From the IMG/VR virus record IMGVR_UViG_3300042691_027063, positions 1-64,000 of that record: a stretch of 64,000 bases of DNA, one strand, 5' to 3'. Positions 34,449 to 60,903 of this stretch are shown here, one piece after another (position 1 is the first letter of the stretch; every line of letters begins with the position of its first letter). Origin of the DNA: a virus. The notes under the pieces were generated by a model. It was not told the DNA's origin. It did not search any database and saw only the letters and a list, made by a program, of their open reading frames with translations. A program made the position numbers and the translations under genes.

Positions 34449-35029
34449 ACTATCTCCAAAATTAAATTATTACTTTTTTTTAAATTTTCATTTTCTGTAA
34501 TAATTCTAAGGTTCCAGGGAACATGCAATCCACATACATTTTTTCCTTGTAGTGGTATTATATGATCAACATTATGTCTTGTTCCGGTGGATATTGTCAA
34601 GTGTTTACTTTCTTTATATAAAAGTTCAATTTCTTTAAGTTGTTCTAATGAAAGCCATTTAGGAGTTGCGTTTAATTTTATTCCTCTTCTCTTATTGACT
34701 TTTGCTGTCAATTTCCACGGATATTTTTTAGCATAATTTTTGTTATTATTTTTAACCTTTTCTGGATATTTTTTAGCCCATTTTTCAAAAACATACTTAG
34801 ATTTTTCTGGATTTCTTTTTCTCCATTTCCTAGAATATTCAGCATACTTTTCTTTATTTTTAATCTTGTATTCTTTTTGTTTGTTTTTTATTTTATCCTT
34901 ATTTTCATCCCTGTACTTTTTTTTGCATTTTTTACAATCACAAGCATAACCGGATTTTTGGTTTTTATCTTTATGAAAAAAAGTAATGTCTAATAATAAC
35001 TTACACTTACTACAATATTTTTGGTTCAT
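34445..35029 (-). CDS. Free-standing HNH homing endonuclease
   Basis: CSKC...CKKC Zn finger, Lys-rich repeats, ATPKW...HNVDHIIPLQGKNVCGLHVPWNL...EN..KSN. Confidence 0.9.
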   Translation of the reverse strand: MNQKYCSKCKLLLDITFFHKDKNQKSGYACDCKKCKKKYRDENKDKIKNKQKEYKIKNKEKYAEYSRKWRKRNPEKSKYVFEKWAKKYPEKVKNNNKNYAKKYPWKLTAKVNKRRGIKLNATPKWLSLEQLKEIELLYKESKHLTISTGTRHNVDHIIPLQGKNVCGLHVPWNLRIITENENLKKSNNLILEIV

Positions 35030-35286
35030 AAATTAGCTTATCATACTTCATTAATGTTTCCCCTCAATTTCAGCTTGTAGAGCTTGCATTGCTAGACCAA
35101 ACCAATTGTCATCACCATCATTGATAGTAATTTCAAAGTCGCCATTGATCTGAAACTTTTCCTGCATTTCTTGTGGTGTGTAGAATTCGCCTTTATACTC
35201 AATAAGGCGATTCATGTCTTTAAATTTAATAACTTTCATAATATCCTTTTATTGGACTGGATTAAACGTTCAGCGTCCAATAAGAA

Positions 35287-35315
35287 ATAGTAGCATGTAT
35301 TTTGGAGTTTGTCAA
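35287..35315 (-). promoter_or_regulatory. sigma70-type promoter with extended -10, upstream of the HNH-polB cluster
   Basis: TTGACA-17 bp-TACTAT with TGn. Confidence 0.65.
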
Positions 35316-35363
35316 GATTAAATAATATATCAAAAGTGATATTCTACTTTTGTATAGAGTATA

Positions 35364-47863: not shown

Positions 47864-49717
47864 TTAAACGATTTCGCAAATTCCGCCAGCCGAACAAGCC
47901 AATTGTTCTGCGCGATTAGTATTATCTTCGAACTCCATTACCTTTGTCAAGTCAATTTCGTTAACCATCTTATTATATTTTTCAAAAGTAGCTTTGTCAG
48001 TGTCCTCGAAAGGTGCCTGTTGATAAACAGCATCAGAGAAAGGTAGGAGACTAACAGCAGCATACTGGAAACGATCTTCCCATAGTCGAGCTAGAAGAGT
48101 ATCAATTTCTTCTGGCTTGTAATTAATAGTGCAGCTTACGTTATGTGTATTCTCTCCTGATCTGTGACCAGGAAGTACCCAATTATTGTAGTAATGTTTC
48201 ACTCGATCGAAGAGACTAAGAGCTGACTCTTGATGACGAGTAATTGCACCTGCTGGAGATTCCTGTGGGATAGTAACTACAACGCCACTTGGACTAAAAA
48301 TGTCAGCCTCTACTAGCTCTGGGATAACTTTACTCAAATATCGAGCAAGTTCATCATCTTTATTCATTCGTACACGACGCAAGTAATACTCACTGTGGCG
48401 AGCGTGGATTCCCGAGCTAGACCCAAGAACGCAAGAAGCCGTTCCTTCAGGCTTAATAGCAGTAGTTCTTGCGGCGATATTGATACCAATTTTGCGGGCA
48501 TATTTTTCGTTGACTTCAAGTACCGTTCTAGCCGCAGCTTGGAGCTGATCGGCAGATAACCCGGGGGAATCCGCGATACCAGTGAAGGAGCAACCAATAA
48601 GTGCTTCTTGTTCAGTAACTGTTCTCCATCTTTCTGAAAGATAAGGGAAATCAGTGAAGCCAGCCTGGAGAGTTCCCAGAAGTGCGGCTGCATATACACG
48701 ATTGTGAAAGTCTTTGTCATTCTTGATGCCAGTTAGATTTGTAGTGGTAAGATTGCAGAACTGATTCGATCGAAGACCGATCTCTGCACATGGGTTTGTT
48801 CCCCAATCCATATCATTAGTGAATACAAAACCGGGTTCGCCAGCGTTAGAAGCAATACACATATCAAAAACGTGCTTAAACTCTTCATAAGTAACCTCGT
48901 GTCTTGGTAATACTGCACTATTGTTAGCTCTGGCTCTGTGAGGATGACGCTCCCACCAGTTACCATGCTTACATGTTAGCATATCATTGTCGTCTCTGTC
49001 GAATAAAGCGATAAGTGCTGCTCTACGAATACCTCCAGATAGTACACAGTCTGCAATCAGACAAATCATATCGTGAGTTTCTAGAGTTGTTAGCTTTCTT
49101 CCTACCGCTTTCTTTAGAATAGCTTCTACTTTTTCAAGCATTGCTTTAAGAGGCTCAGGTCCAGGAGCTTTTGCTCCAGTAGTTACAAGATAAGAACCCT
49201 TCTGACGGACTCTGCTGAAGTCAAATACAGGTCTAATAGCACCGAATAGATATGCGGAGATAAGTTGGTTAAGCGATTCAGCCCAGCCTTCAATGGAGTC
49301 ATGAACAACATAGATTCCTTCCTCTTTTGGTTGACGTACAGTAGGTAGTTGTCCTACGTGACGTTTTTGTACTGAATATCCAAAGCCAGTTCCTGATAGT
49401 AGTAGGAACAAAGCTTCCGCAAAGATACGCGGATATGTAATGTTTGCAAATGAACAGTTAAATAGTCGGACATTATTTCTAAAGATAGCTTCCCCTCCAA
49501 ACTGTAGGGAACGCATAGATGGCATTACGTTAAAGTCATGTAGTTGTTTACCAGCTTTAAGAATATCTCGACTTAGCTTTGGGTATTTATCAAGAAACAT
49601 ATGAAGGTTTCTATTCAATGTTTCTTCTAAAGTCTCTCGTCGATTCAAATGATTTAAATGTTTAGCGTATGTACGATATGCAACAATTTCTGACAATAGA
49701 CGATTAGACTTATTCAC
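47864..49717 (-). CDS. nrdJ: Class II (adenosylcobalamin-dependent, monomeric RTPR-type) ribonucleotide reductase
   Basis: FNC, GGIRRAA, TNPCAEI...QFCNL, TAIKPEGT, C-terminal CSAGGICE redox pair; no small-subunit gene nearby. Confidence 0.92.
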   Translation of the reverse strand: MNKSNRLLSEIVAYRTYAKHLNHLNRRETLEETLNRNLHMFLDKYPKLSRDILKAGKQLHDFNVMPSMRSLQFGGEAIFRNNVRLFNCSFANITYPRIFAEALFLLLSGTGFGYSVQKRHVGQLPTVRQPKEEGIYVVHDSIEGWAESLNQLISAYLFGAIRPVFDFSRVRQKGSYLVTTGAKAPGPEPLKAMLEKVEAILKKAVGRKLTTLETHDMICLIADCVLSGGIRRAALIALFDRDDNDMLTCKHGNWWERHPHRARANNSAVLPRHEVTYEEFKHVFDMCIASNAGEPGFVFTNDMDWGTNPCAEIGLRSNQFCNLTTTNLTGIKNDKDFHNRVYAAALLGTLQAGFTDFPYLSERWRTVTEQEALIGCSFTGIADSPGLSADQLQAAARTVLEVNEKYARKIGINIAARTTAIKPEGTASCVLGSSSGIHARHSEYYLRRVRMNKDDELARYLSKVIPELVEADIFSPSGVVVTIPQESPAGAITRHQESALSLFDRVKHYYNNWVLPGHRSGENTHNVSCTINYKPEEIDTLLARLWEDRFQYAAVSLLPFSDAVYQQAPFEDTDKATFEKYNKMVNEIDLTKVMEFEDNTNRAEQLACSAGGICEIV

Positions 49718-49977
49718 AGTTCTCCTTATAGATATGGTTTAATTAGATAAGCAATTAGAAGAGCCGAGTTAATCCACATTCCAACAAATCCAAGCAAAAT
49801 AAGAACAGCTAATAGATTTGGAATAACGCCAGTTACCACAAATCCAGGCTTACTTAAATCAATCTTCAGTGCCGAGACATATAGAGTTAGTGCAACTCTT
49901 CCTCCATAATATAACACAACACTAGCTAAAGTTGCAAGTAAAAAGATATTCATAATTCATTTTCCAATGTTACTTAT

Positions 49978-50379
49978 TTAGCCATCACCATTACTTAAAA
50001 GTTCTTCCATTTTTTTCTTCAAAGCAAGCTCTGATTCTGTTGGACCTCTAGTGAAATCTTCATCCATGATGATAGTACCCTCTTCTTCTTTCGAAGCTGA
50101 TTTCTTAACTGGCTTTGGTTTTTCAATATTAACAACGGTTACATTTTTTCTACTAGCCTCAACCTTAGCTTTCTGTTCCTTCATTTTCTTTTCGTTGTCA
50201 AAAGCAGCAGAATAATATTCAATGCTAGAAATTGCTTCTAGTAGCTCTGCTTTATTGACAACCATACGACCTTGACCTAATCGCAAAAGAAGGAAGTCGG
50301 GGTCTTCTGTTACTCGTTGAACAATTACTTCTTCGCCTTCTTCATTTGTATTAACATAGACAGTTAATTCTTTTCTCAT
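49978..50379 (-). CDS. Hypothetical protein
   Basis: ORF track; GGAG RBS. Confidence 0.55.
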   Translation of the reverse strand: MRKELTVYVNTNEEGEEVIVQRVTEDPDFLLLRLGQGRMVVNKAELLEAISSIEYYSAAFDNEKKMKEQKAKVEASRKNVTVVNIEKPKPVKKSASKEEEGTIIMDEDFTRGPTESELALKKKMEELLSNGDG

Positions 50380-51394
50380 TTAGTTCTCCTCTATATTTGA
50401 TTCACATTGAAATTGAACAGAATCCATTTGGTAATCCTCGAACAAATGTGGTCCCATAACTACACTTTCTTTTTGTCTTGAAATAGACCAGTCTTTATGA
50501 ATATTTGTTAAAGAGTTATAGGAAATAAAACAATAATCATATTTAGATGTTAGCTGTTGAAATTTAATCATTTTGTAACCGCCCTGAAATTAACAAACTC
50601 AGAACCTGAATCTGTTTTTTCAATTATATGTCTACCTTCCCAGGAGTATCCCTTTTCTGATGTTTTATTTTCCTCTGAAATGTAAATAGCAAAGTTGTAG
50701 TGATATTCCGATTTATCGAGTGGCAACATATATTGTGTAATTTCAATCATACTGGATGTCCCATAATATCATCTTCCTCTGTTTCATTATACTCATCTCG
50801 ATTGACGTTGTAAAGTAAATTCTCATACATCTTATGAATTACTTTATTACCATCAATATTCAATACTCTAGAGTTATTTGAATGTGGTTCTAGAATTTCT
50901 AAAGGTCTTAAATCATTGAAGTCTTTTACCTTACACTCAGGAAATAGTTCATTGAATGTTCCAACTGTCTGGACTTCTAAGTTGTCGAACTTATTAATTC
51001 TTTCACCAATTGTATAAAATTTAGATTTCATATTTAAATGCTCCTTTGTCTAAAAGCCACTCTTGATTTTCAAACTTTTCTTTTTCTATTACTGAAAATT
51101 TAAGGTCTATACCTTGCTTTAATAAATTACTTAACCAACTATATCGATTTTGAAATAAGATCATTTATCAACCTCTTCCTTTTTAGCCTGACATTTGCGA
51201 CAGGTTATATATTTATTATTACTGAAATAAGAATCTTCGTACCATTCGTGCTTACATTTAGGAGTTTCTTCTAGTTCAAAATATCCCCAATCATCTGGGT
51301 TGATATAGTAAGGATCGTATTCTCTGTCCCACTTAGTACCAGAAAAAAGCTTTTCAATTTCTTCATCTGTTAGCGTAATTGGTTTATGCATATA

Positions 51395-51958
51395 CTACCT
51401 CAATTCATATACATATCGTAATTTTCTTTCTTGTTTTAAAACAGATGCTTCGCCTTTTTTAATTGCATCTTGAATTCTCTTAGCGTCTTTAGAGTACTCA
51501 CCATCTTTCTTTTGATATAGCTGTCTAATATGGTAGTATCTATCTCCCCACTTTACAACCCTAGCATTATTCTTTTCTAAGCCATCGAACTTGAAGTTAG
51601 TTGCTTTATATATTGTTCCTTGGTGACCTTTATTTGGATCAGCAAATGTTATAACTCTAGTATATCTCTTTTTCTTTAAGTGTCTAAGAGTAGCACCTAG
51701 AAAGAAACTCTCTGTGTTCTTCGGGGTATCGTCAATTAAACAGAATCTACGAAGCTCTAAATCGTTCATGTCACAGTTTGCCCCACAAGGCTGACCATAG
51801 ATAGCTACCCCACAAAGTTCTCCAAATTCGCTCAACAAAAGAAAAACTTCCTTTTGTTTCATTGATCTACAACTCTTAGAGTAATGCCACTTTTCTACAA
51901 AGTCAATAGTATTCTTTGAAAGGATCGATCCTACTGGCACGATTTTATATCTCATCAA
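51395..51958 (-). CDS. Mom-family (GNAT-fold) DNA adenine modification enzyme
   Basis: HYSK, GVAIYG.P, ELRRFC, NTESFFLG, ITFADP..GHQGTIYKATNF, KLRYVY. Confidence 0.8.
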   Translation of the reverse strand: MMRYKIVPVGSILSKNTIDFVEKWHYSKSCRSMKQKEVFLLLSEFGELCGVAIYGQPCGANCDMNDLELRRFCLIDDTPKNTESFFLGATLRHLKKKRYTRVITFADPNKGHQGTIYKATNFKFDGLEKNNARVVKWGDRYYHIRQLYQKKDGEYSKDAKRIQDAIKKGEASVLKQERKLRYVYELR

Positions 51959-53747
51959 TCTCCCCAGATTTTTGTATAGCTATCTTTAAATTGATTACTA
52001 AAATCTATTGATGCATATCCAGTTGTTCCATTATATCTAGGAAATGATGTTATTTCTCCATTCCATGTAATAAAGAAAAGGTCTTGACCACACATATCAT
52101 TAGTGTTTTTATATTGAGAAATTCTAAGCATTGAAGTCTCCAATTTCAACATGATCTAAAAACTTCGAAGACACTGTACTGTGACTTCTAGGAACTCCGT
52201 TTTGTAAGTAGTGGAGGATTCCATCTTTTACAAAGTCAAAACAAAGCTGATCTCTTTGGTTAGGCGTTTTAATATATTGAAGTATTTTAATCATTGAAGA
52301 CTCCTATTAGATTATATCCAATTAGCTCATCATATTTATAGTGCATCGAATAGATAATACCTCTATTTTGATAATAAAGAGTATCACCTATAAGCTTATC
52401 AAGCATAAGCTCAAACTGTCCAAAATTGACTTGGATGATCTTCATTGTAAGTTCCTGTAATTAATATGATTTTAAATTTTTATTGAAGCGATGTTCATTT
52501 TTTACTTGACAGCATTTTCTTGACGTGATATATAACAACTATGCACAGTATATAATTGAAAGATGGTTGATTTAAGGACAGGTATATTCAAATTTTACTC
52601 TTGACTTTGTGAAATATTCTTTATAGTCTGGTCTAGTTATATTTCCTTCCTCAAAACCATGTATAGTATTTCTACTATACTTAAACCAAATATCCTTTCT
52701 CCTTACTATAGTAAAGGAAAGTGAGTTATATCCTACATCGCTACCATACTGAAAAATGTATATCATTATTTACTCCATATTAAATTATAGAATTTACTTT
52801 CTACTATAAAACCAATGGATACATAACATCCGCCTAAGTCCTCTGTTTTTTTATTAGGATATTTATAAAAACTTCTATCTAATTCCTTATTGTATGAAAT
52901 AAAACAGAGGTGAAACTCCGAACTTTTACGAACGCACTGATCGAATCTCATCATAAACTTTAACTCCTAATTCCTTGAGTCTAGCTCTACAATTAATCTT
53001 AGCTTGCTTTATACTGGAAGCTTGACCTATAATAATTACTGACAAATTGTGATCTATAATTCTGTAAGTGAAATCGTTTTGATTTATTAGAGCTTGTAGG
53101 ATTGTATTTTTAGAGACAATGAATTGCTGAGATGCAAGTATGTTTGGGGCTTTATCTAAGGGCTTATATTGAATCCTCGTCATTGTCAAAACCTCCTTCA
53201 TAGAGTTCAACAAATCTATCTTCACCAACACAGAACAAAACCTTATCTCTGTTAACAGTTGCGAGATATGCTTGACTTTGTTTTTCAGGTGAATTAACTA
53301 GAACTTGCTCAAAAGCAAAGGCTAAACATTCTTCAGCAGATAAAGATTTATAAGAGCTATTTAGCTGAATTTCCTCAACTTGATCCTCAATCGCTCTTAA
53401 TAGTTCCTTTACTTTTTTATTTCTCATTTTACCTTGTGGTCATAAATAACCAAATCCAGAATATTGGAAATGAAAGATAAAAAATAATACCATAGAAAGC
53501 CAAACTTGTCAAGGCATTAGCTACTCTAAATCCAATAATCTTACAAAAGAAGAGCAAGATAATTGCTCCAGCAATAACGTATCTCATTTGATCCTTGTAT
53601 AAAATATATTATATTCTTTATCATAGCTATAGGAAGCTAGTATTTGTCCTGTTTTTAATGTACTAACTTTTTCTTGTAAACAAGCAAACTGCAAGCACCA
53701 TACTGTCTTCTCTTTAGCCATAGCTTTATATTGTTTTATAATAAACA

Positions 53748-54068
53748 TTAATGCAATCCTTCTTTCTTAGCTGGTTTACTTGGCATATCCAACTCAATTC
53801 CAAGTTCACTAGAAAGCTCGTCAAATATATCTTCCGTAAGTTCGATAAGCTTAATAGGTTCATTCTGCTCACTAATTATATTAGCAAACTCACTTTCAAA
53901 AACAGAAAAAGCTTTCTTCATCAAGTCCATAGTTTTATTGTATGGGTCTTTTTCAAATTCAAGCTCGTCCTCTTTTTCCATAAGCTCGGCGGCTGCATCT
54001 GAAAATAATCCAAATGCTTGAGTCATCATTGTGAGAAGAAGTAACTGTGCTTTTTCTTTATCATTCAT
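53748..54068 (-). CDS. Acidic hypothetical protein
   Basis: ORF track. Confidence 0.5.
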   Translation of the reverse strand: MNDKEKAQLLLLTMMTQAFGLFSDAAAELMEKEDELEFEKDPYNKTMDLMKKAFSVFESEFANIISEQNEPIKLIELTEDIFDELSSELGIELDMPSKPAKKEGLH

Positions 54069-54396
54069 TGTTTAATCCTAGTGAAGAAGTATGTTTCTTT
54101 TTTTCTAAGTCTGCGATGACTTGACCGACCGCTAGTACTCCAGCTATAAAGATATTCGTTAAAGTTTTTTCCTTTGTAAAATGTTAAATCTCTGAAATTA
54201 AAATCGAAGCTTTTTCTTTGTGCAATTAACATATCAATCCTTTATGTATTTAAATTCTCTACAAACTGGTGGTTTCATTATCCAACTATTAATATACCAC
54301 CAGTTATAAATACTTCTATCATTTTCTACCGATGTTCCGCAATTCCCAATTAGTAATAAAAACTTAAATCTAATTCTTTCATTTACTCCAATTTCT

Positions 54397-55152
54397 TTAT
54401 GGTCGAACTGGTAAATTCTCATTGATGTACTCCTTCATTGCAACTACCCAACGCTGGGCATTATTAGAGTTCAATCCTGGTGCTGAGTTTACTTCACAAA
54501 CAAAGAAGTTACCATCCTTATCTCGAATCAAATCTACTCCACCAAATAATAAACCAAGAGCATTTACTGCATCAATTGCAATTTTTTGACCGACTTCATT
54601 ACATCGACTTCTTGTAGGATTGACGAGACTAAAGTGGCAGTTATGTGACTTGAATAAAGCGGGTCGTTCGTAGTTTTCTTCATTGATATTATTAGGAATC
54701 TTTTCGTAAATGGCTACGATCTTGGAATTGAAGACATGAACTCGATACTCTCTCCTCTTATTTGGAATTGGCTTAGAGGCATACTGATCTGTTACTGGAT
54801 TGAAGTCATTACCATAACGAACTTCACCTTGTCTCGATCTGATATAGTAGTTATTAGTTGTATCTTTTACTGAATCAATGCTAGTTAATTCTGTAGTAAA
54901 TACAGGCATTGGAATATTTGCAGCAGAAAGTAATTGCATCATTCTTAGTTTATTGCTAGCGTTTAATACCGCCTCTGCTGTATTAAGTTCTAGTCTAGCT
55001 GTAGTCCTATTGAATACCTCAGAGCTACCCCAACGAATAAGAACATCTAATTTAGCACGACGCTGTGTTTTCTTTCTAGGACAGGAAAGAATCTGACGAA
55101 GAAGCTTTCCAGTGTTGGATGATTTAGAATGGTAGGCAATCATTGTTTTCAT
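54397..55152 (-). CDS. ATP-grasp ligase (RimK/YheCD-like)
   Basis: IRWG, ASNKL, REYRVHV, ALGLLFGGVDL, CEVNSAPG. Confidence 0.9.
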   Translation of the reverse strand: MKTMIAYHSKSSNTGKLLRQILSCPRKKTQRRAKLDVLIRWGSSEVFNRTTARLELNTAEAVLNASNKLRMMQLLSAANIPMPVFTTELTSIDSVKDTTNNYYIRSRQGEVRYGNDFNPVTDQYASKPIPNKRREYRVHVFNSKIVAIYEKIPNNINEENYERPALFKSHNCHFSLVNPTRSRCNEVGQKIAIDAVNALGLLFGGVDLIRDKDGNFFVCEVNSAPGLNSNNAQRWVVAMKEYINENLPVRP

Positions 55153-55501
55153 TTTTAACCTTCGCTTCTAACTTAGCTGTGAAACTATATCGATGTTTCT
55201 CTATCGATTCATTATAGAAATCTTTTTTATTAATCTGTTTGATTAAACAAATATGATTAAGAATTCTACCAAAAGACAATTCGTACACAATGAGACGAGA
55301 ATGGTCTCTCATTTTATACTGAACGATTTCCATATTAGTTCACCTTATAAAGTTCAATAAGTTGATCGTCAAAAACCCAACCACTAATACTGTCACATCC
55401 AAGACTCCCCCACCTATCATCGTATTTATTTTTAATCCAAAATAATAATTGTCTTGGTCTACTATAGAAAGAGTTATTTTTTAATTGACATATCTTCATA
55501 T

Positions 55502-56710
55502 TTATCCTTTAGCTTCTCCATAAGCAGAATTAAATACAAATTCAATCTCATCTACAACATCTTGGAAATCATCGAACTGCCAAGTATCTTGACGAAGATG
55601 AGTTGGAAGACATTCATACATATAAGAAAAATTACATCCGAACTCAGCGTCATACTCATATAGTCGATCGATCAATGGTTCGTCAACGTCATAAAGGAAA
55701 TCGAAAAGATCGGCGATGTTATAGAACTGTTCTCTTTCTGAGACCTGCGATAATACCTGAGTCTCTTCTCTCTCTGATTCTTTCTTCGAGGGTTTTGAAG
55801 GATTCATTGGTAGAAGGTAAGCTTGACTTTTTTTTTCTGGCTGACTTGCTTTTCCAGACATACGCTCCCAATCGAATCCGCCGTAGTAATTGCCTCGGCT
55901 ATTGAGAACCGAATCATTTAGCTGCGTTTGAGAAATAAGCTGACCAGTTACAGCATTGAATCGGAATAACTTATTTTCTTTAATCATTGATGGTTTTGTA
56001 AATTCAAGTCCGAGCTTTGTTGCTGTTGATGTGATGATGTCGGTAGTCGTTGCCATTACTATTCCGAATCCTTCGATTTGTGAATAATATAACCCCGCAT
56101 CATTACGAATAACGTCAAGAATGCGAGTGCCGTCAGAGTCCCGAGTAAGAATACCAAACGCCCAATAACCAGAAAGAGTGTTAAGCCAAGCTTGCGCATT
56201 GGAAATATCCTTACCTACGTTATGATTGATATATGATTGCAACGCTGCCTCTGAATCGCAAGTAGAAATTTTATTAAGTCCAAGTGTAAAAGAGTTACTG
56301 ATAACTCCGTTATGTACTAGAGAATGATCTGCGTCAACGAATGGGTGTGTATTGGCGAACTCTTTTCCACAGGTAGCATAACGTGTGTGCATTGTTACTG
56401 TCGTAACATTTTCAAATGTCGGAACATCTACACCAAACAAAGAATAGTTTTGATCGATGTTAGTATATTTAGACAAATGCTTTTTATATGCAAGAAGTTC
56501 TTTAGCAATCTTCTCATCTCTAATTGCGTCTCGATCAAAGAACAAATCGTTATCATGCCATCGCTCAGTAAAGAAGTTACCATCATTCTTTACTGCACTA
56601 TAACCAATTCCCATGTTGTTACCAACAGACATTGGAACCTTAGCTTCTAGCATAAATTTTTCAGTTAGCGATGGATTCTTAAGACCTGTCATAAGTAATA
56701 ATCGACACAT
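55502..56710 (-). CDS. Class II (Ntn) glutamine amidotransferase
   Basis: N-terminal M-C nucleophile, HTRYAT, NTHPF, HNGVI, CDSE, G.WAF. Confidence 0.9.
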   Translation of the reverse strand: MCRLLLMTGLKNPSLTEKFMLEAKVPMSVGNNMGIGYSAVKNDGNFFTERWHDNDLFFDRDAIRDEKIAKELLAYKKHLSKYTNIDQNYSLFGVDVPTFENVTTVTMHTRYATCGKEFANTHPFVDADHSLVHNGVISNSFTLGLNKISTCDSEAALQSYINHNVGKDISNAQAWLNTLSGYWAFGILTRDSDGTRILDVIRNDAGLYYSQIEGFGIVMATTTDIITSTATKLGLEFTKPSMIKENKLFRFNAVTGQLISQTQLNDSVLNSRGNYYGGFDWERMSGKASQPEKKSQAYLLPMNPSKPSKKESEREETQVLSQVSEREQFYNIADLFDFLYDVDEPLIDRLYEYDAEFGCNFSYMYECLPTHLRQDTWQFDDFQDVVDEIEFVFNSAYGEAKG

Positions 56711-56956
56711 CAATAATTTCCTTTGTTTAATTTGATAATAGATATAATTCCATTTCTTAGAGTTATCTTTTGTTTTAAACCATTTGGTTGAAGCATATCA
56801 TAATCTTTTGATATGACCATACCATTTAAGTATAAAGTAGAAGATGTAATTTCACTACAAGCGTCAGAATATAGCGGGTCTGGTAGACTGAGAGTCAATA
56901 GCAGAGTGTTCTGGAATATCTCTACTCCAGAACCTCTGTAATAAAAGAACTTGATT

Positions 56957-58363
56957 TTAGGCTGCTTCGAACTCTTCGTTGCCGTTCTCATCGATTCGAG
57001 ATGAAACGTAGTCCATAGCAACTTTAGGGATAGATGGAGCCACCGAAGAAAGTTCCGTAATTGTCTCCATTTTCTTTGTAATAAGTTGAGCATTGTTCAC
57101 TACTCCGATAAGAAACTTACACCAGTTAATAATCTGAACACAGTTTACTGTACCCTCGTGAACTCGAATCTCAAGAGTTTGGAACTTCTTAAATGCGTGA
57201 GTGTTAATAACGCTATATCTTTCAGAATCGTTACGCTCCTGTGTTACTTTGAAAGAAGAGTTTTTATTTGGTTTACAGTATGTATTTAGCTGTCTATACT
57301 CAGGTTGAGCTTTACGCATTAGACTCATTGTGTTAAACAATGCAGCGTATGAAGTCTCTGCGTTTCGAGTTCTGTGATCGAGATGAACGTGCAATCCACA
57401 AGATCGGTTTACAAGTGCATTGATTTCCTTGTCCCGTAGAACTTTTTGGATTCGCATTAGGACATTTTCTAGCTCATCTTCCGAGACTAAAACTCGAATT
57501 TCGCAAGAGAAATAATTCGGTGCATCTACATTGATCGAACCATCATCTGTAACATTGACATACTTATGAAGGCGAGCTTCGATGAATTTCTTCTTAAGCT
57601 TGTCACGACCACCCTTAACGATACACTCAATCTCGATACCAACATATTTTTTATTTGGATCGGAAGGAACTTTGTTTTGCTCAATAAAAGTAACAAGTCC
57701 TTGCTCAAAGATTTTACCATAAACATTGGATTCAACATTGATGCCACCCAACTTACGAACCTTAACACCTTGAACTTCTTTGACTGTCTCTTTTAGAACA
57801 TTAGCTCTACGCTGTTCTGTGATAAGAGAGGCAAGGTGCATCTCTAACTCTTCTTTTTTGTCAGCTAGAGAAGTCTCAACTTCTACAACTCGCTTGAGCT
57901 TATCAACATAAAACTTTGTAGTTGCTGGATTTAGAGCAGATGAGATGGCGAGTTCAATTTTCTCAATCTCAGCAGCGTTCGCCTTCATTGTCCGACCATT
58001 TGGCTTATACTTTAGAGCCAAACGCTCACGCTTTTGACGAAGAAGTGAAAGCTCTGTTTGCAATTGACTCACATCAATCTTATCTTCAATCTTTCGATAA
58101 GCAATGGTTCGTTTACATACAGCAGGTTGACAATCTGCAACTCTGAGAATTGGATTTCCTTGAACCTCTGGAACATTGAGAACTTCTACCTCAATGATTT
58201 CACCATGATAGCTATGCTTATCAGTTCTAAGAACTTTGAAAAGCCAATCACGCATAATACCAACATAACCTAGCTGACCGAAATGACCATCTAGTTTGAA
58301 ATTTTCAGCGAACATAGATGGATTAAGACGGATAACAGAACCAACTTTAATTTGATTTGACAT
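56957..58363 (-). CDS. COOH-NH2 ligase (putative amidoligase) with N-terminal coiled-coil extension
   Basis: GIEIE, DDGSI, CEI, CGLHVHLD, RYSVIN, TLEIRVHEGT; GGAGG RBS. Confidence 0.88.
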   Translation of the reverse strand: MSNQIKVGSVIRLNPSMFAENFKLDGHFGQLGYVGIMRDWLFKVLRTDKHSYHGEIIEVEVLNVPEVQGNPILRVADCQPAVCKRTIAYRKIEDKIDVSQLQTELSLLRQKRERLALKYKPNGRTMKANAAEIEKIELAISSALNPATTKFYVDKLKRVVEVETSLADKKEELEMHLASLITEQRRANVLKETVKEVQGVKVRKLGGINVESNVYGKIFEQGLVTFIEQNKVPSDPNKKYVGIEIECIVKGGRDKLKKKFIEARLHKYVNVTDDGSINVDAPNYFSCEIRVLVSEDELENVLMRIQKVLRDKEINALVNRSCGLHVHLDHRTRNAETSYAALFNTMSLMRKAQPEYRQLNTYCKPNKNSSFKVTQERNDSERYSVINTHAFKKFQTLEIRVHEGTVNCVQIINWCKFLIGVVNNAQLITKKMETITELSSVAPSIPKVAMDYVSSRIDENGNEEFEAA

Positions 58364-58439
58364 AGACAATACCTCCGAGTTATGTCAATTATTATTTACA
58401 TTTTCATTGGAGTCAATACCCCAAATTTTACCTTCATGT

Positions 58440-58853
58440 TCAAGTACGTTTTGCTCGAACCATTCTTTTAGTTCTTGCTCTGATTTTCTTTCGAGTTCGA
58501 GTTGAAGAAATAGATTTAATTTCCATACCTTTTTTGACTGGAACACTTTTGATTCTTCCATTTTTCCTCATCTCTACTGGGATTGTTATTTGATTAATAA
58601 ATTCAATACAATTGGTCGGTATGCTATGAATAGCATTTATGTTATATTTATTTGAGAAAAAAGAAGGAGTCAATCTACCTAGAGTCATAATCTCAATAGG
58701 AATATCTTCACCTTCCTCGTCATCCCAAATTTCATCTGTATAAGTATCGTTTCTTTTAATATAAAACTCAAGTTCTTTATTAGGAGAAACTCCACCATAT
58801 AACTCATCACAAGTAGACTCATCAAGTATCTGAGCTAGAGTTATTTTTTCCAT
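58440..58853 (-). CDS. Hypothetical protein
   Basis: ORF track; GGAG RBS. Confidence 0.5.
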   Translation of the reverse strand: MEKITLAQILDESTCDELYGGVSPNKELEFYIKRNDTYTDEIWDDEEGEDIPIEIMTLGRLTPSFFSNKYNINAIHSIPTNCIEFINQITIPVEMRKNGRIKSVPVKKGMEIKSISSTRTRKKIRARTKRMVRAKRT

Positions 58854-59254
58854 TTAAATCTCCAGTATAAAAAGTGAATCTATTTGGCTCATCTTCTGTT
58901 GCATTTTTTAGTTTACGTTCTTGTTTAATTGGTGTTTTTCTTCCTTCATCTTTCCAAGTATAATAGTCACTTAGTACACATCTAAATTTAAGATGTGCTC
59001 CTTTTACCCAACTTTTATCATCCTTGTATTGAGCTATCTTCATTTTTTAACCCTTTAAGATTATACCTAAAGTCAGATTTTTCCGTATAAATGTACATAC
59101 CAGACGAGACTAACATCGTCTTTTTGCTTTCACAATTATACCAAGTTCCTTTTTTGTGATCTTTATTTATAACAATCACATTAAATCCTAAATGCGATTG
59201 CCAAATATATTTTCCGTCGATCGGAGTTTGATCGAAGTAAATCATAATCCTCCT

Positions 59255-59340
59255 AAATAGTGACGAGCCGTCACCTCACAACTACTTTCCTGTCATCCAA
59301 CAACAGAGGTCAGTAACCTTACGAGTTAGGTATGTGACAC
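59255..59340 (-). ncRNA. Unassigned repeated RNA motif, copy C
   Basis: GUGUCACAUACC-45 nt two-hairpin insert-AGUUGUGA-GGUGACG GCU CGUCACU-AUUU, then AGGAGG RBS. Confidence 0.65.
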
Positions 59341-59353
59341 CTAGCATTTTATA

Positions 59354-59617
59354 TTAGGCTTTCAGCTTCTCAGTAGAAAGCTTGTCCGCATTTTCATTAA
59401 TAAAATCGGCTAACTCAGGAGCCGAAAAAAGATCAGCTAACTTTTGAGCTTGATTAACATACAAGCTAACTGGAAATCTTGAGTTCAATCCGTAGATAAG
59501 AAGGTTCCCTTTATCACCTACCTTAACAGTCAATCCTCCGATTCTCTTAGTTGGAATCAAAGCCTTCATTTCCTTGAGCTTTGCTTCTAGTGCCTTGATT
59601 TCTTCTTTAGTTGTCAT
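59354..59617 (-). CDS. Conserved small protein
   Basis: LTVKVGDKG.L.IYGL.SRFPVSLY..Q motif; AGGAG RBS. Confidence 0.65.
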   Translation of the reverse strand: MTTKEEIKALEAKLKEMKALIPTKRIGGLTVKVGDKGNLLIYGLNSRFPVSLYVNQAQKLADLFSAPELADFINENADKLSTEKLKA

Positions 59618-60066
59618 TTTCTTTCTCCTTTTTTTCAAAGCGAAATCTGCTTTGATTGTATTGATTAACAAATAAATAGTTATCTATTCCATTCGGACAA
59701 TTAACTTTCTCAAATAGGTTAGTTCTATATTTAGAATTAACGTCTATACAAACAAATAGCAACGAAGATTTTTCATCTGCCCATCCATCTGGTATCCTCT
59801 GTTTTAAAATCATGTGATTCATTTTTACCTCTAGTTGAAGCAATAAAATCTGTTAAGTAGCTTCTTGAGTCTCTATAACCATTTTTATTAAATATCCCCC
59901 AAGGTCTTGAACAAAAAGATTTATCCTTTTCATCAAAATCAAAGCCAAAGTTATAATTAGCATTAGCGTCGTTTCTAGTTCCGAATTGGTATATTTTAAA
60001 CATATTATATCTCACTTAATATCACTAACCCTATGTAAAATAAAACACAGTAACCCAATAACTCGA

Positions 60067-60318
60067 TCATTGAATCTTCCAATTGAGACAGTCTGTCAAG
60101 CTATAATCATAACCTCGCCAGTTACCACCTCTTTGAATCATGTTTAGTTCGCTCATAGTTTTAAGTAATTGTCTTACTTTAGTTTCAGACAATCCGCTTC
60201 TAACTACAAGTCCAGACAATGTTAGAGTCCGATACTTTTTGAGCGTATGATAGAGAAGAAACATGGAAGCACCATAGTTTCTAGCCATCTCTAACTCTAA
60301 ATCATTCATACCATGCAC
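60067..60318 (-). CDS. Winged helix-turn-helix DNA-binding protein
   Basis: LTLSGLVVRSGLSETKVRQLLKTM...MIQR.G...Y.L. Confidence 0.75.
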   Translation of the reverse strand: MHGMNDLELEMARNYGASMFLLYHTLKKYRTLTLSGLVVRSGLSETKVRQLLKTMSELNMIQRGGNWRGYDYSLTDCLNWKIQ

Positions 60319-60538
60319 CTTGGTAAGTAAAGCCTAAATTTTTCTGCAAGTTACGCAACATTTTTTGCTGCTGTGGAGAAAGTTCAGGCTTTGTATAAAC
60401 TTTCTCAGGTTGATTGTAAATAGCCTTTAAGCTAGCATCATAGCCCGCTTTGTTGCTATTTTTACCCAAGTCCTTTGCATTTTTTGAATTCAATTTTTCA
60501 GGTGGCTTAGGGAAGATTTTCTTTCTTGATTTTGCCAT
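60302..60538 (-). CDS. Basic hypothetical protein
   Basis: ORF track; AGGAG RBS. Confidence 0.5.
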   Translation of the reverse strand: MAKSRKKIFPKPPEKLNSKNAKDLGKNSNKAGYDASLKAIYNQPEKVYTKPELSPQQQKMLRNLQKNLGFTYQGAWYE

Positions 60539-60903
60539 AACCTACTCCTTAATTATAGCATCTTCCTTGATGCAAAATTGACCATTCGTGGTCTTGATTA
60601 ATACACCACCAGCTTGGAAACATTTAGAATCCACCTTAAGCGTTTTGTATACAAAAAAGCCGAGAATAAAAACGAAAAGCATAGACAAAACTACTATGCC
60701 GATTCTATTAATCATTGTTTTTCCTCAACCATATAGTTAAGTAATAGCTCGTCACACTTCTTAAGTTCAGAAATATATGCCTGAGTAAGAAGCCAATCAC
60801 GCTCAGAATATATCTGAATCTTTGTCTCAAGTAAAGAGATATGTTCTACTAGTTTTTCTTTTGGCATTGTTTCTATATATAACATAGATACCTCCAGTAT
60901 TAT

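Follow-up and report, generated by a model that had tools for sequence, protein, structure and literature searches.

The window analysed here is a stretch of 64,000 nucleotides, the first 64 kb of the 95,647-bp virus record IMGVR_UViG_3300042691_027063. The element under study is a set of 17 short open reading frames (ORFs), named m01 to m17, which lie on its minus strand between positions 50,380 and 60,003 among larger early genes. A sequence-only reading had listed these ORFs by their N-termini and had drawn attention to their hyper-divergence, to a glutamine close to the N-terminus and to the overlap of their start and stop codons with those of the neighbouring genes. All 17 were found on the minus strand with the N-termini described, and six of them (m03, m05, m06, m09, m10 and m13) fall below 60 amino acids (aa). 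Gln occupies position 5 or 6 in every member (position 8 if m16 begins at its MNH start, which is preceded by a Shine-Dalgarno (SD) sequence), the overlaps are present, and the pairwise BLAST similarity among the members is essentially nil. The results presented below identify these microgenes as real, translationally coupled genes of one lineage-specific, previously undescribed family. The members are as follows.

59773..60003, minus strand: m17, 76 aa, MFKIYQF...; own-frame codon usage is best; called as a protein on 9 contigs
59607..59822, minus strand: m16, 68-71 aa, (MNH)MILKQR...; SD (GAGG) before the MNH start
59018..59245, minus strand: m15, 75 aa, MIYFDQT...; orthologue P0011 at 55%
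58822..59043, minus strand: m14, 73 aa, MKIAQY...; orthologues P0006 and P0015 at 84-88%; structure predicted (see below)
55335..55499, minus strand: m13, 54 aa, MKICQL...; between the glutamine amidotransferase and ATP-grasp genes
55124..55333, minus strand: m12, 69 aa, MEIVQY...; 29-nt overlap with the start of the ATP-grasp gene
54234..54422, minus strand: m11, 62 aa, MRIYQF...; 26-nt overlap with the end of the ATP-grasp gene
54065..54232, minus strand: m10, 55 aa, MLIAQR...; the ending FTRIKQ holds AGGA and the ATG of the next gene
53584..53748, minus strand: m09, 54 aa, MFIIKQY...; the ending YTRIK holds AGGA and the ATGA of the next gene
52766..52954, minus strand: m08, 61-62 aa, (M)MRFDQC...; weak match to m01
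52572..52766, minus strand: m07, 64 aa, MIYIFQY...
52287..52445, minus strand: m06, 52 aa, MKIIQV...; the ending IGVFND holds AGGAG and the ATG of m05; mid motif absent
52124..52294, minus strand: m05, 56 aa, MIKILQY...; the ending IGDFNA holds GGAG and the ATG of m04
51955..52131, minus strand: m04, 58 aa, MLRISQY...; the longest ORF begins 21 nt upstream; called as 58 aa on 7 contigs
51021..51164, minus strand: m03, 47 aa, MILFQN...
50568..50750, minus strand: m02, 60 aa, MIEITQY...
50380..50571, minus strand: m01, 63 aa, MIKFQQ...
52926-53183, minus strand, longer form to 53231: the MTRIQY... gene, 85-101 aa (internal ATG), an eighteenth ORF with the N-terminal motif

Coding evidence and the shared signature

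When scored under the codon usage of the long genes, the own frame is the best one for 16 of the 17 microgenes. An SD-like tetramer lies 4-17 nt upstream of 14 of the 17 start codons, as compared to 21% of all ATGs on that strand. The microgenes tile the coding strand without gaps and are joined by ATGA-type overlaps. Orthologues of m14 and m15 (P0006 and P0011) apparently lie together on one 1026-bp contig with their frames kept open, and the ratio of nonsynonymous to synonymous substitution (dN/dS) is 0.25-0.70 in four orthologous microprotein pairs from two related contigs, L118 and L081.

Enrichment of the signature was assessed with a motif that combines M-x(3,4)-Q and [hydrophobic]-x-F; the remainder of the 95.6-kb genome, read in all six frames, served as background. 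The motif occurs far above chance, in 16 of the 39 small minus-strand ORFs in 50.3-60.0 kb as compared to 3 of 299 elsewhere (Fisher p 3e-14). The second half of the motif, which played no role in the Gln-based membership rule, is found 7-16 residues past the Gln in 16 of 18 sequences, as against 5.1 +/- 1.9 in composition-preserving shuffles, none of which reached 16 in 5000 trials. Leave-one-out hidden Markov models (HMMs) placed 9 of the 18 first among 194 ORFs. A weak signal persists even when the N-terminal motif is cut off (Fisher combined p 8e-7), in a lenient test whose background is mostly non-coding ORFs.

The Gln of the signature is encoded by both CAA and CAG and the Ile residues by ATT, ATA and ATC; this use of synonymous codons places the conservation at the level of protein. 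A nucleotide-level repeat as the source of the N-terminal motif is thus rejected. In an alignment of 64 sequences, only Met1, the Gln and a central Phe exceed 90% conservation, with a C-terminal Phe above 70%. By anchored counts the pattern is M-[I/K]-I-h-Q-[Y/F], 10-14 variable residues and then [Y/L]-x-F-x-[F/I/L]-[Y/I/W]-x-D. The certain common part of the family is an N-terminal module of about 25 residues, and the remainder is hypervariable. The members are 36-85 aa long (median 54 aa) and contain 16.6% aromatic residues and 2.2% Ala; as their pI spans 4.8 to 10.5, uniformly acidic DNA mimics are rejected as a description of the set.

The insignificant pairwise similarity, the lack of database families and the low confidence of ESMFold and AlphaFold2 (AF2) models would all be expected if the ORFs were untranslated, spurious products of AT-rich composition. 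Such an artefact is, nevertheless, extremely improbable in view of the motif enrichment and the shuffling result, the codon usage and SD sites, the tight packing on the coding strand and the existence of conserved orthologues.

C-terminal endings and translational coupling

Several microproteins had also been described as sharing C-terminal endings. The endings are indeed present, but they cannot be counted as evidence of a family or a fold, since the same nucleotides encode the SD sequence and ATG of the next cistron. The end of m09, ACA AGG ATC AAA TGA, reads as ...TRIK-stop while also providing AGGA and, with ATGA, the start of the next gene; m10 ends likewise. The m06 end (ATA GGA GTC TTC AAT GAT TAA) holds the GGAG and ATG of m05, as the m05 end (ATT GGA GAC TTC AAT GCT TAG) does for m04. 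A recurrent ending in the related record G003, F-K-L-E-L-I-Y, corresponds to TTY AAA CTG GAG CTT ATA CTA TGA. The Glu codon of this LELIY-type ending is GAG in 8 of 8 cases, or AGG stands in its place, and the GAG forms an SD with correct spacing to the overlapping ATG. Of the ending, only F-x-L precedes this SD. The dual coding of the endings implies that translational coupling imposes both the acidic C-terminal bias and the latter half of the C-terminal 'strand'. Families called from motifs thus need caution, as overlapping translation signals in microproteins can mimic 'conserved C-terminal motifs'.

The purine-rich embedded SD sequences explain the acidic C-termini, and their reading as RimK- or Pup-type ligation sites is rejected. 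The C-termini differ in every member, with no invariant Gly-Gly, Gln or Glu of the kind expected of a Pup- or ubiquitin-like tag.

Sigma-70-like promoter matches are not enriched in window positions 49500-64000 (42 as compared to 54.8 expected), and SD sequences are strong and regular; together these argue for a long coupled early transcript and for a host with SD-led initiation. Two terminator-like hairpins (59406-59425 and 61586-61617, both minus strand) have the common core GGCTCCTGAG followed by a T-run.

One variant of m09, P0004 on a 1.5-kb contig, has a product that reaches 75 aa, past the m09 TGA that overlaps the ATG of the next gene. P0004 is a natural variant with an altered coupling junction.

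Genome setting and neighbouring genes

A near-identity nucleotide search of the region gave no match in 50,697 phage records, and the family-B DNA polymerase (PolB) has only about 28% identity to the nearest cultured phages. The plus strand carries the genes of 0.4-24 kb, an SU10-type adaptor among them, and the minus strand carries all genes of 24-63 kb, including those for ribonucleotide reductase (RNR), a DnaB-type helicase, PolB and a nuclease. The microgene block begins shortly downstream of the early/late divergence and extends as far as the RNR gene, and the replication genes come after. This gene layout puts the microgenes ahead of the replication genes, in the promoter-proximal third of a long early transcription unit that runs leftward, within its first ~13 kb.

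The other 32 kb of the record encode the terminase, a trypsin-like peptidase, an SU10/P22-type portal and very large proteins. The trypsin-like serine peptidase (PF13365, E 5e-15) lies at 67112-67870 of the genome on the plus strand (L177:3112-3870), between the large terminase and the portal, and is an unusual candidate head-maturation or virion protease.

The larger genes with which the microgenes are interleaved include the following.

56957..58369, minus strand: Amidoligase_2 (PF12224), a backbone gene that served as query for related phages
55502..56713, minus strand: class-II glutamine amidotransferase (GATase_6; GATase below), whose real start is probably the ATG giving Met-Cys
54397..55152, minus strand: RimK-like ATP-grasp ligase, with family members on both flanks in 4 of 4 genomes
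51395..51958, minus strand: Mom-family protein (PF25680, E 7e-31)

A 243-nt stretch (window 56714-56956) separates the amidoligase from the GATase gene, and a 93-aa ORF without an SD (56710-56991) overlaps it; in the relatives the two genes abut or have one family member between them (G001). The stretch may be a decayed family member.

The family in related virus genomes

Homologues of the amidoligase occur in metagenomes at 30-57% identity, the nearest relatives being Logan contigs at 54-57%, and the 1026-bp contig with P0006 and P0011 belongs to this set of nearest relatives. With an alignment of amidoligase homologues (A5) as query, 160 loci were obtained. Six of these carry a full-length homologue (L111, L086, L082, L001, L118 and L081), and the remaining 154 served as a comparison set. 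The two-part signature has a density of 0.36/kb in the six as compared to 0.043/kb in the 154, a difference of 8.5-fold, and all but one of the matches in the six lie on the strand of the enzymes. The family is thus carried by at least six distantly related virus contigs. Locus scans of viral contigs with the ATP-grasp protein or the m15 alignment as query, and of metagenome contigs with the m14 alignment, found nothing.

Three whole related records, G001 (81.5 kb), G002 (82.1 kb) and G003 (87.3 kb), were compared with the window's genome. In each of the four genomes the members are confined to one syntenic block, in which the order of the backbone genes is kept: p105, amidoligase, GATase, ATP-grasp, p87, the MTRI[Q/K]Y gene, Mom (window and G003 only), p94, p133 and RNR. 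Identity of the backbone proteins to those of the window ranges from about 31% (amidoligase) to 77% (RNR). Almost every backbone junction holds members, from 0 to 5 per junction, in numbers varying by genome. Curation gave ~18 members in G001, ~9 in G002 and ~18 in G003. The copy-number check proposed with the original description yields, for at least four genomes, roughly 10-20 copies in each.

The members themselves cannot be matched across genomes by sequence. The window HMM, iterated over the 160 related loci and searched in five related records, gave no cross-genome matches, and HMMs reveal no recognisable orthologue of a window member in the related genomes. Profile-profile comparison (hhalign) between genomes aligned the first 25 columns only, weakly (P 0.0016, probability 16%). 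The family is thus a hallmark of the lineage, but its sequences turn over until they are no longer recognisable, whereas the backbone is retained.

The MTRIQY gene differs in this respect. Its orthologues in G001, G002 and G003 begin MTRIKY or MTTRIKY (32% identity and E 4e-11 to that of G003), and it is a conserved orthologous gene, not a hypervariable family member. It may be a slow-evolving relative or founder of the microprotein family, or it may be unrelated. The Mom-family gene has a counterpart in G003 (57% identity) and no match in G001 or G002, which shows that the DNA-modification content of the block varies within the lineage. Proteins of ~160 aa are encoded inside the early block of G001 (67649-68134, minus strand) and G002 (34871-35353, plus strand) and are absent from the window. 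Their N-terminal motif appears to resemble that of NUMOD4 homing endonucleases, and they could be a source of local rearrangement.

Relation to the interleaved ligase genes

The company of an amidoligase, a GATase and an ATP-grasp ligase raises the question of whether the microproteins are partners or substrates of these enzymes, with the N-terminal module as a leader or handle and the tail or the invariant Gln as the modified part. In 4 of 4 genomes members lie on either side of the ATP-grasp gene and one comes after the GATase gene, and a Gln conserved in more than 90% of the sequences stands beside a glutamine amidotransferase. A conserved N-terminal part with a hypervariable remainder also resembles leader/core precursor families. 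Among the multi-copy precursors of ribosomally synthesized and post-translationally modified peptides (RiPPs), those of the prochlorosin type and the graspetides made by ATP-grasp enzymes have such an architecture, and the likeness extends to the many short paralogous genes near an ATP-grasp ligase.

There are also differences from RiPP precursors. The leader-like part is far less conserved here, the products are 36-85 aa long and predicted to be beta-rich, and their genes are dispersed among unrelated ones. The N-terminal module is present and members flank the ATP-grasp gene in the four genomes, but they are found just as well beside unrelated genes (Mom, p94, p133, membrane proteins and RNR). 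The variable part has no conserved core motif; across the 64 sequences, conservation is confined to the columns of the Gln and of the mid and C-terminal Phe, so that the Thr/Ser/Lys and Asp/Glu residues of a graspetide core are not seen. The microproteins are absent from other amidoligase and ATP-grasp cassettes, the motif being at background density only in the 154 other amidoligase loci, and the enzyme cassette is reported in other phage groups and so works without such genes. G001 and G002 keep the family though they lack Mom, and the acidic C-termini, a possible hint of RimK-type tailing, are explained by the purine-rich SD sequences. A functional link to the ligases is accordingly judged unlikely.

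Evolution of the microproteins

The claim of an expanded, rapidly diversifying paralogue family is borne out by tandem paralogues, by the copy number given above and by a dN 10-40x that of the neighbouring enzymes. The rates were compared between the closely related contigs L118 and L081. The amidoligase, GATase, ATP-grasp and RNR proteins are 96-99% identical, with dN of 0.005-0.03, dS of about 0.05-0.13 (0.43 for RNR) and dN/dS of about 0.07-0.11. Four microproteins are 84, 67, 70 and 85% identical, with dN of 0.08-0.23 and dS of 0.26-0.47. The divergence is unevenly distributed along the protein, as signature positions differ at 12% and other positions at 33% in six orthologous pairs (p 1e-5); the signature is kept by purifying selection. 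Clear similarity persists between neighbouring paralogues in G003 and in L118 (E 2e-11 and 5e-11). New members are therefore born by tandem duplication and then diverge rapidly.

These data also bear on a role of the microgenes mainly in cis, as junction cassettes that tune the coupling or stoichiometry of the backbone genes, or as selfish insertions, with peptides of little function. Nearly every backbone junction is occupied, in variable numbers, the 3' ends provide the SD and start of the next gene, and the lack of promoter enrichment fits one long coupled transcript. Peptides of little function are nevertheless hard to reconcile with Gln, Ile and Phe residues kept through synonymous codon changes, with signature positions more constrained than the rest and with a dN/dS below 1; the backbone genes of relatives also abut directly without spacers. 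A role confined to cis is therefore regarded as quite improbable.

Structure prediction and homology searches

The proposal that all members use one small beta scaffold did not gain support, as two AF2 runs gave no confident fold and no structural match was obtained. The model of m14 (17 sequences; predicted local distance difference test (pLDDT) 66) is mostly beta, with strands at residues 2-7 and 18-23. That of m04 (64 sequences; pLDDT 59, predicted template modelling score 0.21) lacks the N-terminal strand. Searches with the m14 model gave only noise, with a best E of 4.4 for Foldseek against the PDB and a best Z of 3.1 for VIA-align wide, and the ESM Atlas was uninformative (own model pLDDT 0.37, feature matches below 0.85).

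By sequence, the 17 members matched no family in Pfam or PHROGs. Among the 64 members, none (0/64) matched Pfam or PADLOC at E<=0.01, and PHROGs gave one weak match only (E 0.005, to a PHROG of unknown function). The best E of a PDB sequence profile search was 1.5. When 1.84 billion representatives were searched exhaustively with HMMER, the window profile recovered the window's own proteins and the orthologues P0006 and P0011 only, and word-indexed searches with two family profiles returned members of the lineage only, all named 'hypothetical'. The family has no relatives outside this lineage in Pfam, PHROGs, PADLOC, the PDB, the ESM Atlas or the 1.84 billion proteins.

Comparison with known systems

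The internal proteins (IPs) of phage T4 are one of the closest parallels. They are described as diverse defence proteins that share only a capsid-targeting sequence (CTS) (PMC3012670; PMC9026906), of which residues 4 and 7 are responsible for targeting (PMC9026906), and IPI has an anti-restriction role (PMC3012670, PMC9026906). Like IPI, IPII, IPIII and the variable IP locus, the microgenes encode small, otherwise unrelated proteins with a short Met1-anchored motif in which Gln5 follows a hydrophobic or aromatic residue, and both sets vary between related phages. The N-terminus MKTYQEFIAE of T4 IPII and IPIII (read from NC_000866), with Gln5 after an aromatic residue, is near MRIYQF and MFKIYQF of m11 and m17. 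Met1, Gln5 and a hydrophobic position 4 are common to both, and position 6, not 7, is aromatic here.

This likeness, and the trypsin-like peptidase encoded between terminase and portal, would suit a capsid- or virion-targeting signal that loads the small proteins for co-injection with the DNA. The resemblance, however, spans 5-6 residues only. The second conserved motif 7-16 residues on, which the T4 proteins lack, implies a folded module and not a 10-residue tag. The I/L-x-E site of the prohead protease is missing from the microproteins: no Glu or other residue is fixed at positions 8-10, positions +2 to +8 after the Gln are variable, and no conserved cleavage motif follows the N-terminal strand. 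The phages are unrelated, the present one having a portal and adaptor of SU10 and P22 type, and T4 has about 3 such proteins as compared to 10-20 here. The microgenes are scattered through an early enzyme operon, distant from the structural genes. On balance, a CTS-like signal has a low probability.

Large lytic T4-type phages have hyperplastic early regions, with many small, fast-turnover ORFs between conserved genes. The present block is similar in that small early ORFs lie between backbone genes and vary in number and content between relatives. It differs in that the ORFs of those regions are mostly unrelated to each other and set apart by promoter or terminator cassettes, whereas here one family with a common N-terminal module is linked in chains of start/stop overlaps.

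Small anti-defence proteins (anti-CRISPR and similar) are comparable in size, early position, rapid turnover and lack of detectable homologues. To our knowledge, known anti-defence families do not usually comprise 10-20 paralogues built on a common framework within a single genome, and no microprotein matches a PADLOC or Pfam model, the weak PHROG match being the only one found.

Proposed role of the family

From the position, copy number, turnover and framework/variable pattern of the genes, we infer, at about even probability, that the microproteins are small immediate-early binders, diversified into a set that serves host takeover or anti-defence. The family grows by local tandem duplication, filling the junctions of conserved backbone genes in genome-specific numbers. 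The 3' ends, by bearing the SD and start codon of the next cistron, constrain the C-terminal residues and chain the genes into one coupled polycistron. The N-terminal module, a beta-hairpin in one weak model, may serve as a constant framework or docking handle, and the variable remainder may supply diverse binding surfaces, a diversity reflected in the pI range and the aromatic content. The proteins would act right after infection as small binders or inhibitors of host proteins, and an arms race would drive their turnover.

Several points weigh against small binders. The proposal is a statement on function that names no target, and the hairpin or scaffold idea is drawn from models of low confidence (pLDDT 66 and 59). 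The family as defined across genomes depends on a short motif and synteny, as the window HMM detects no members in other genomes and the hhalign probability is low. The constant interleaving with the three ligase and amidotransferase genes is equally predicted by a functional link to them. The raised dS of the microproteins could reflect allele exchange instead of faster substitution, and positive selection is not directly proven by a dN/dS below 1.

A bolder proposal, to which we assign a rather low probability, is that the ~25-residue module is a universal docking handle bringing the hypervariable tails to one machine, either the interleaved enzymes or the assembling virion. In either case it would represent a new delivery or modification system. 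Docking on the ATP-grasp, amidoligase and GATase enzymes would amount to a phage-encoded combinatorial system for peptide modification or tagging, with 10-20 ribosomal substrates, and docking on the virion to a CTS-like cargo system in a non-T4 podovirus.

The early regions of phages are where the majority of the host-takeover and anti-defence functions still to be discovered are expected. The small ORFs of such regions, however, tend to be singletons, which precludes comparative analysis. The family of small, putative binders described here, with more than 70 natural variants, a shared signature, a conserved genomic frame, rate differences and duplications, offers a tractable system for the turnover of small effectors.

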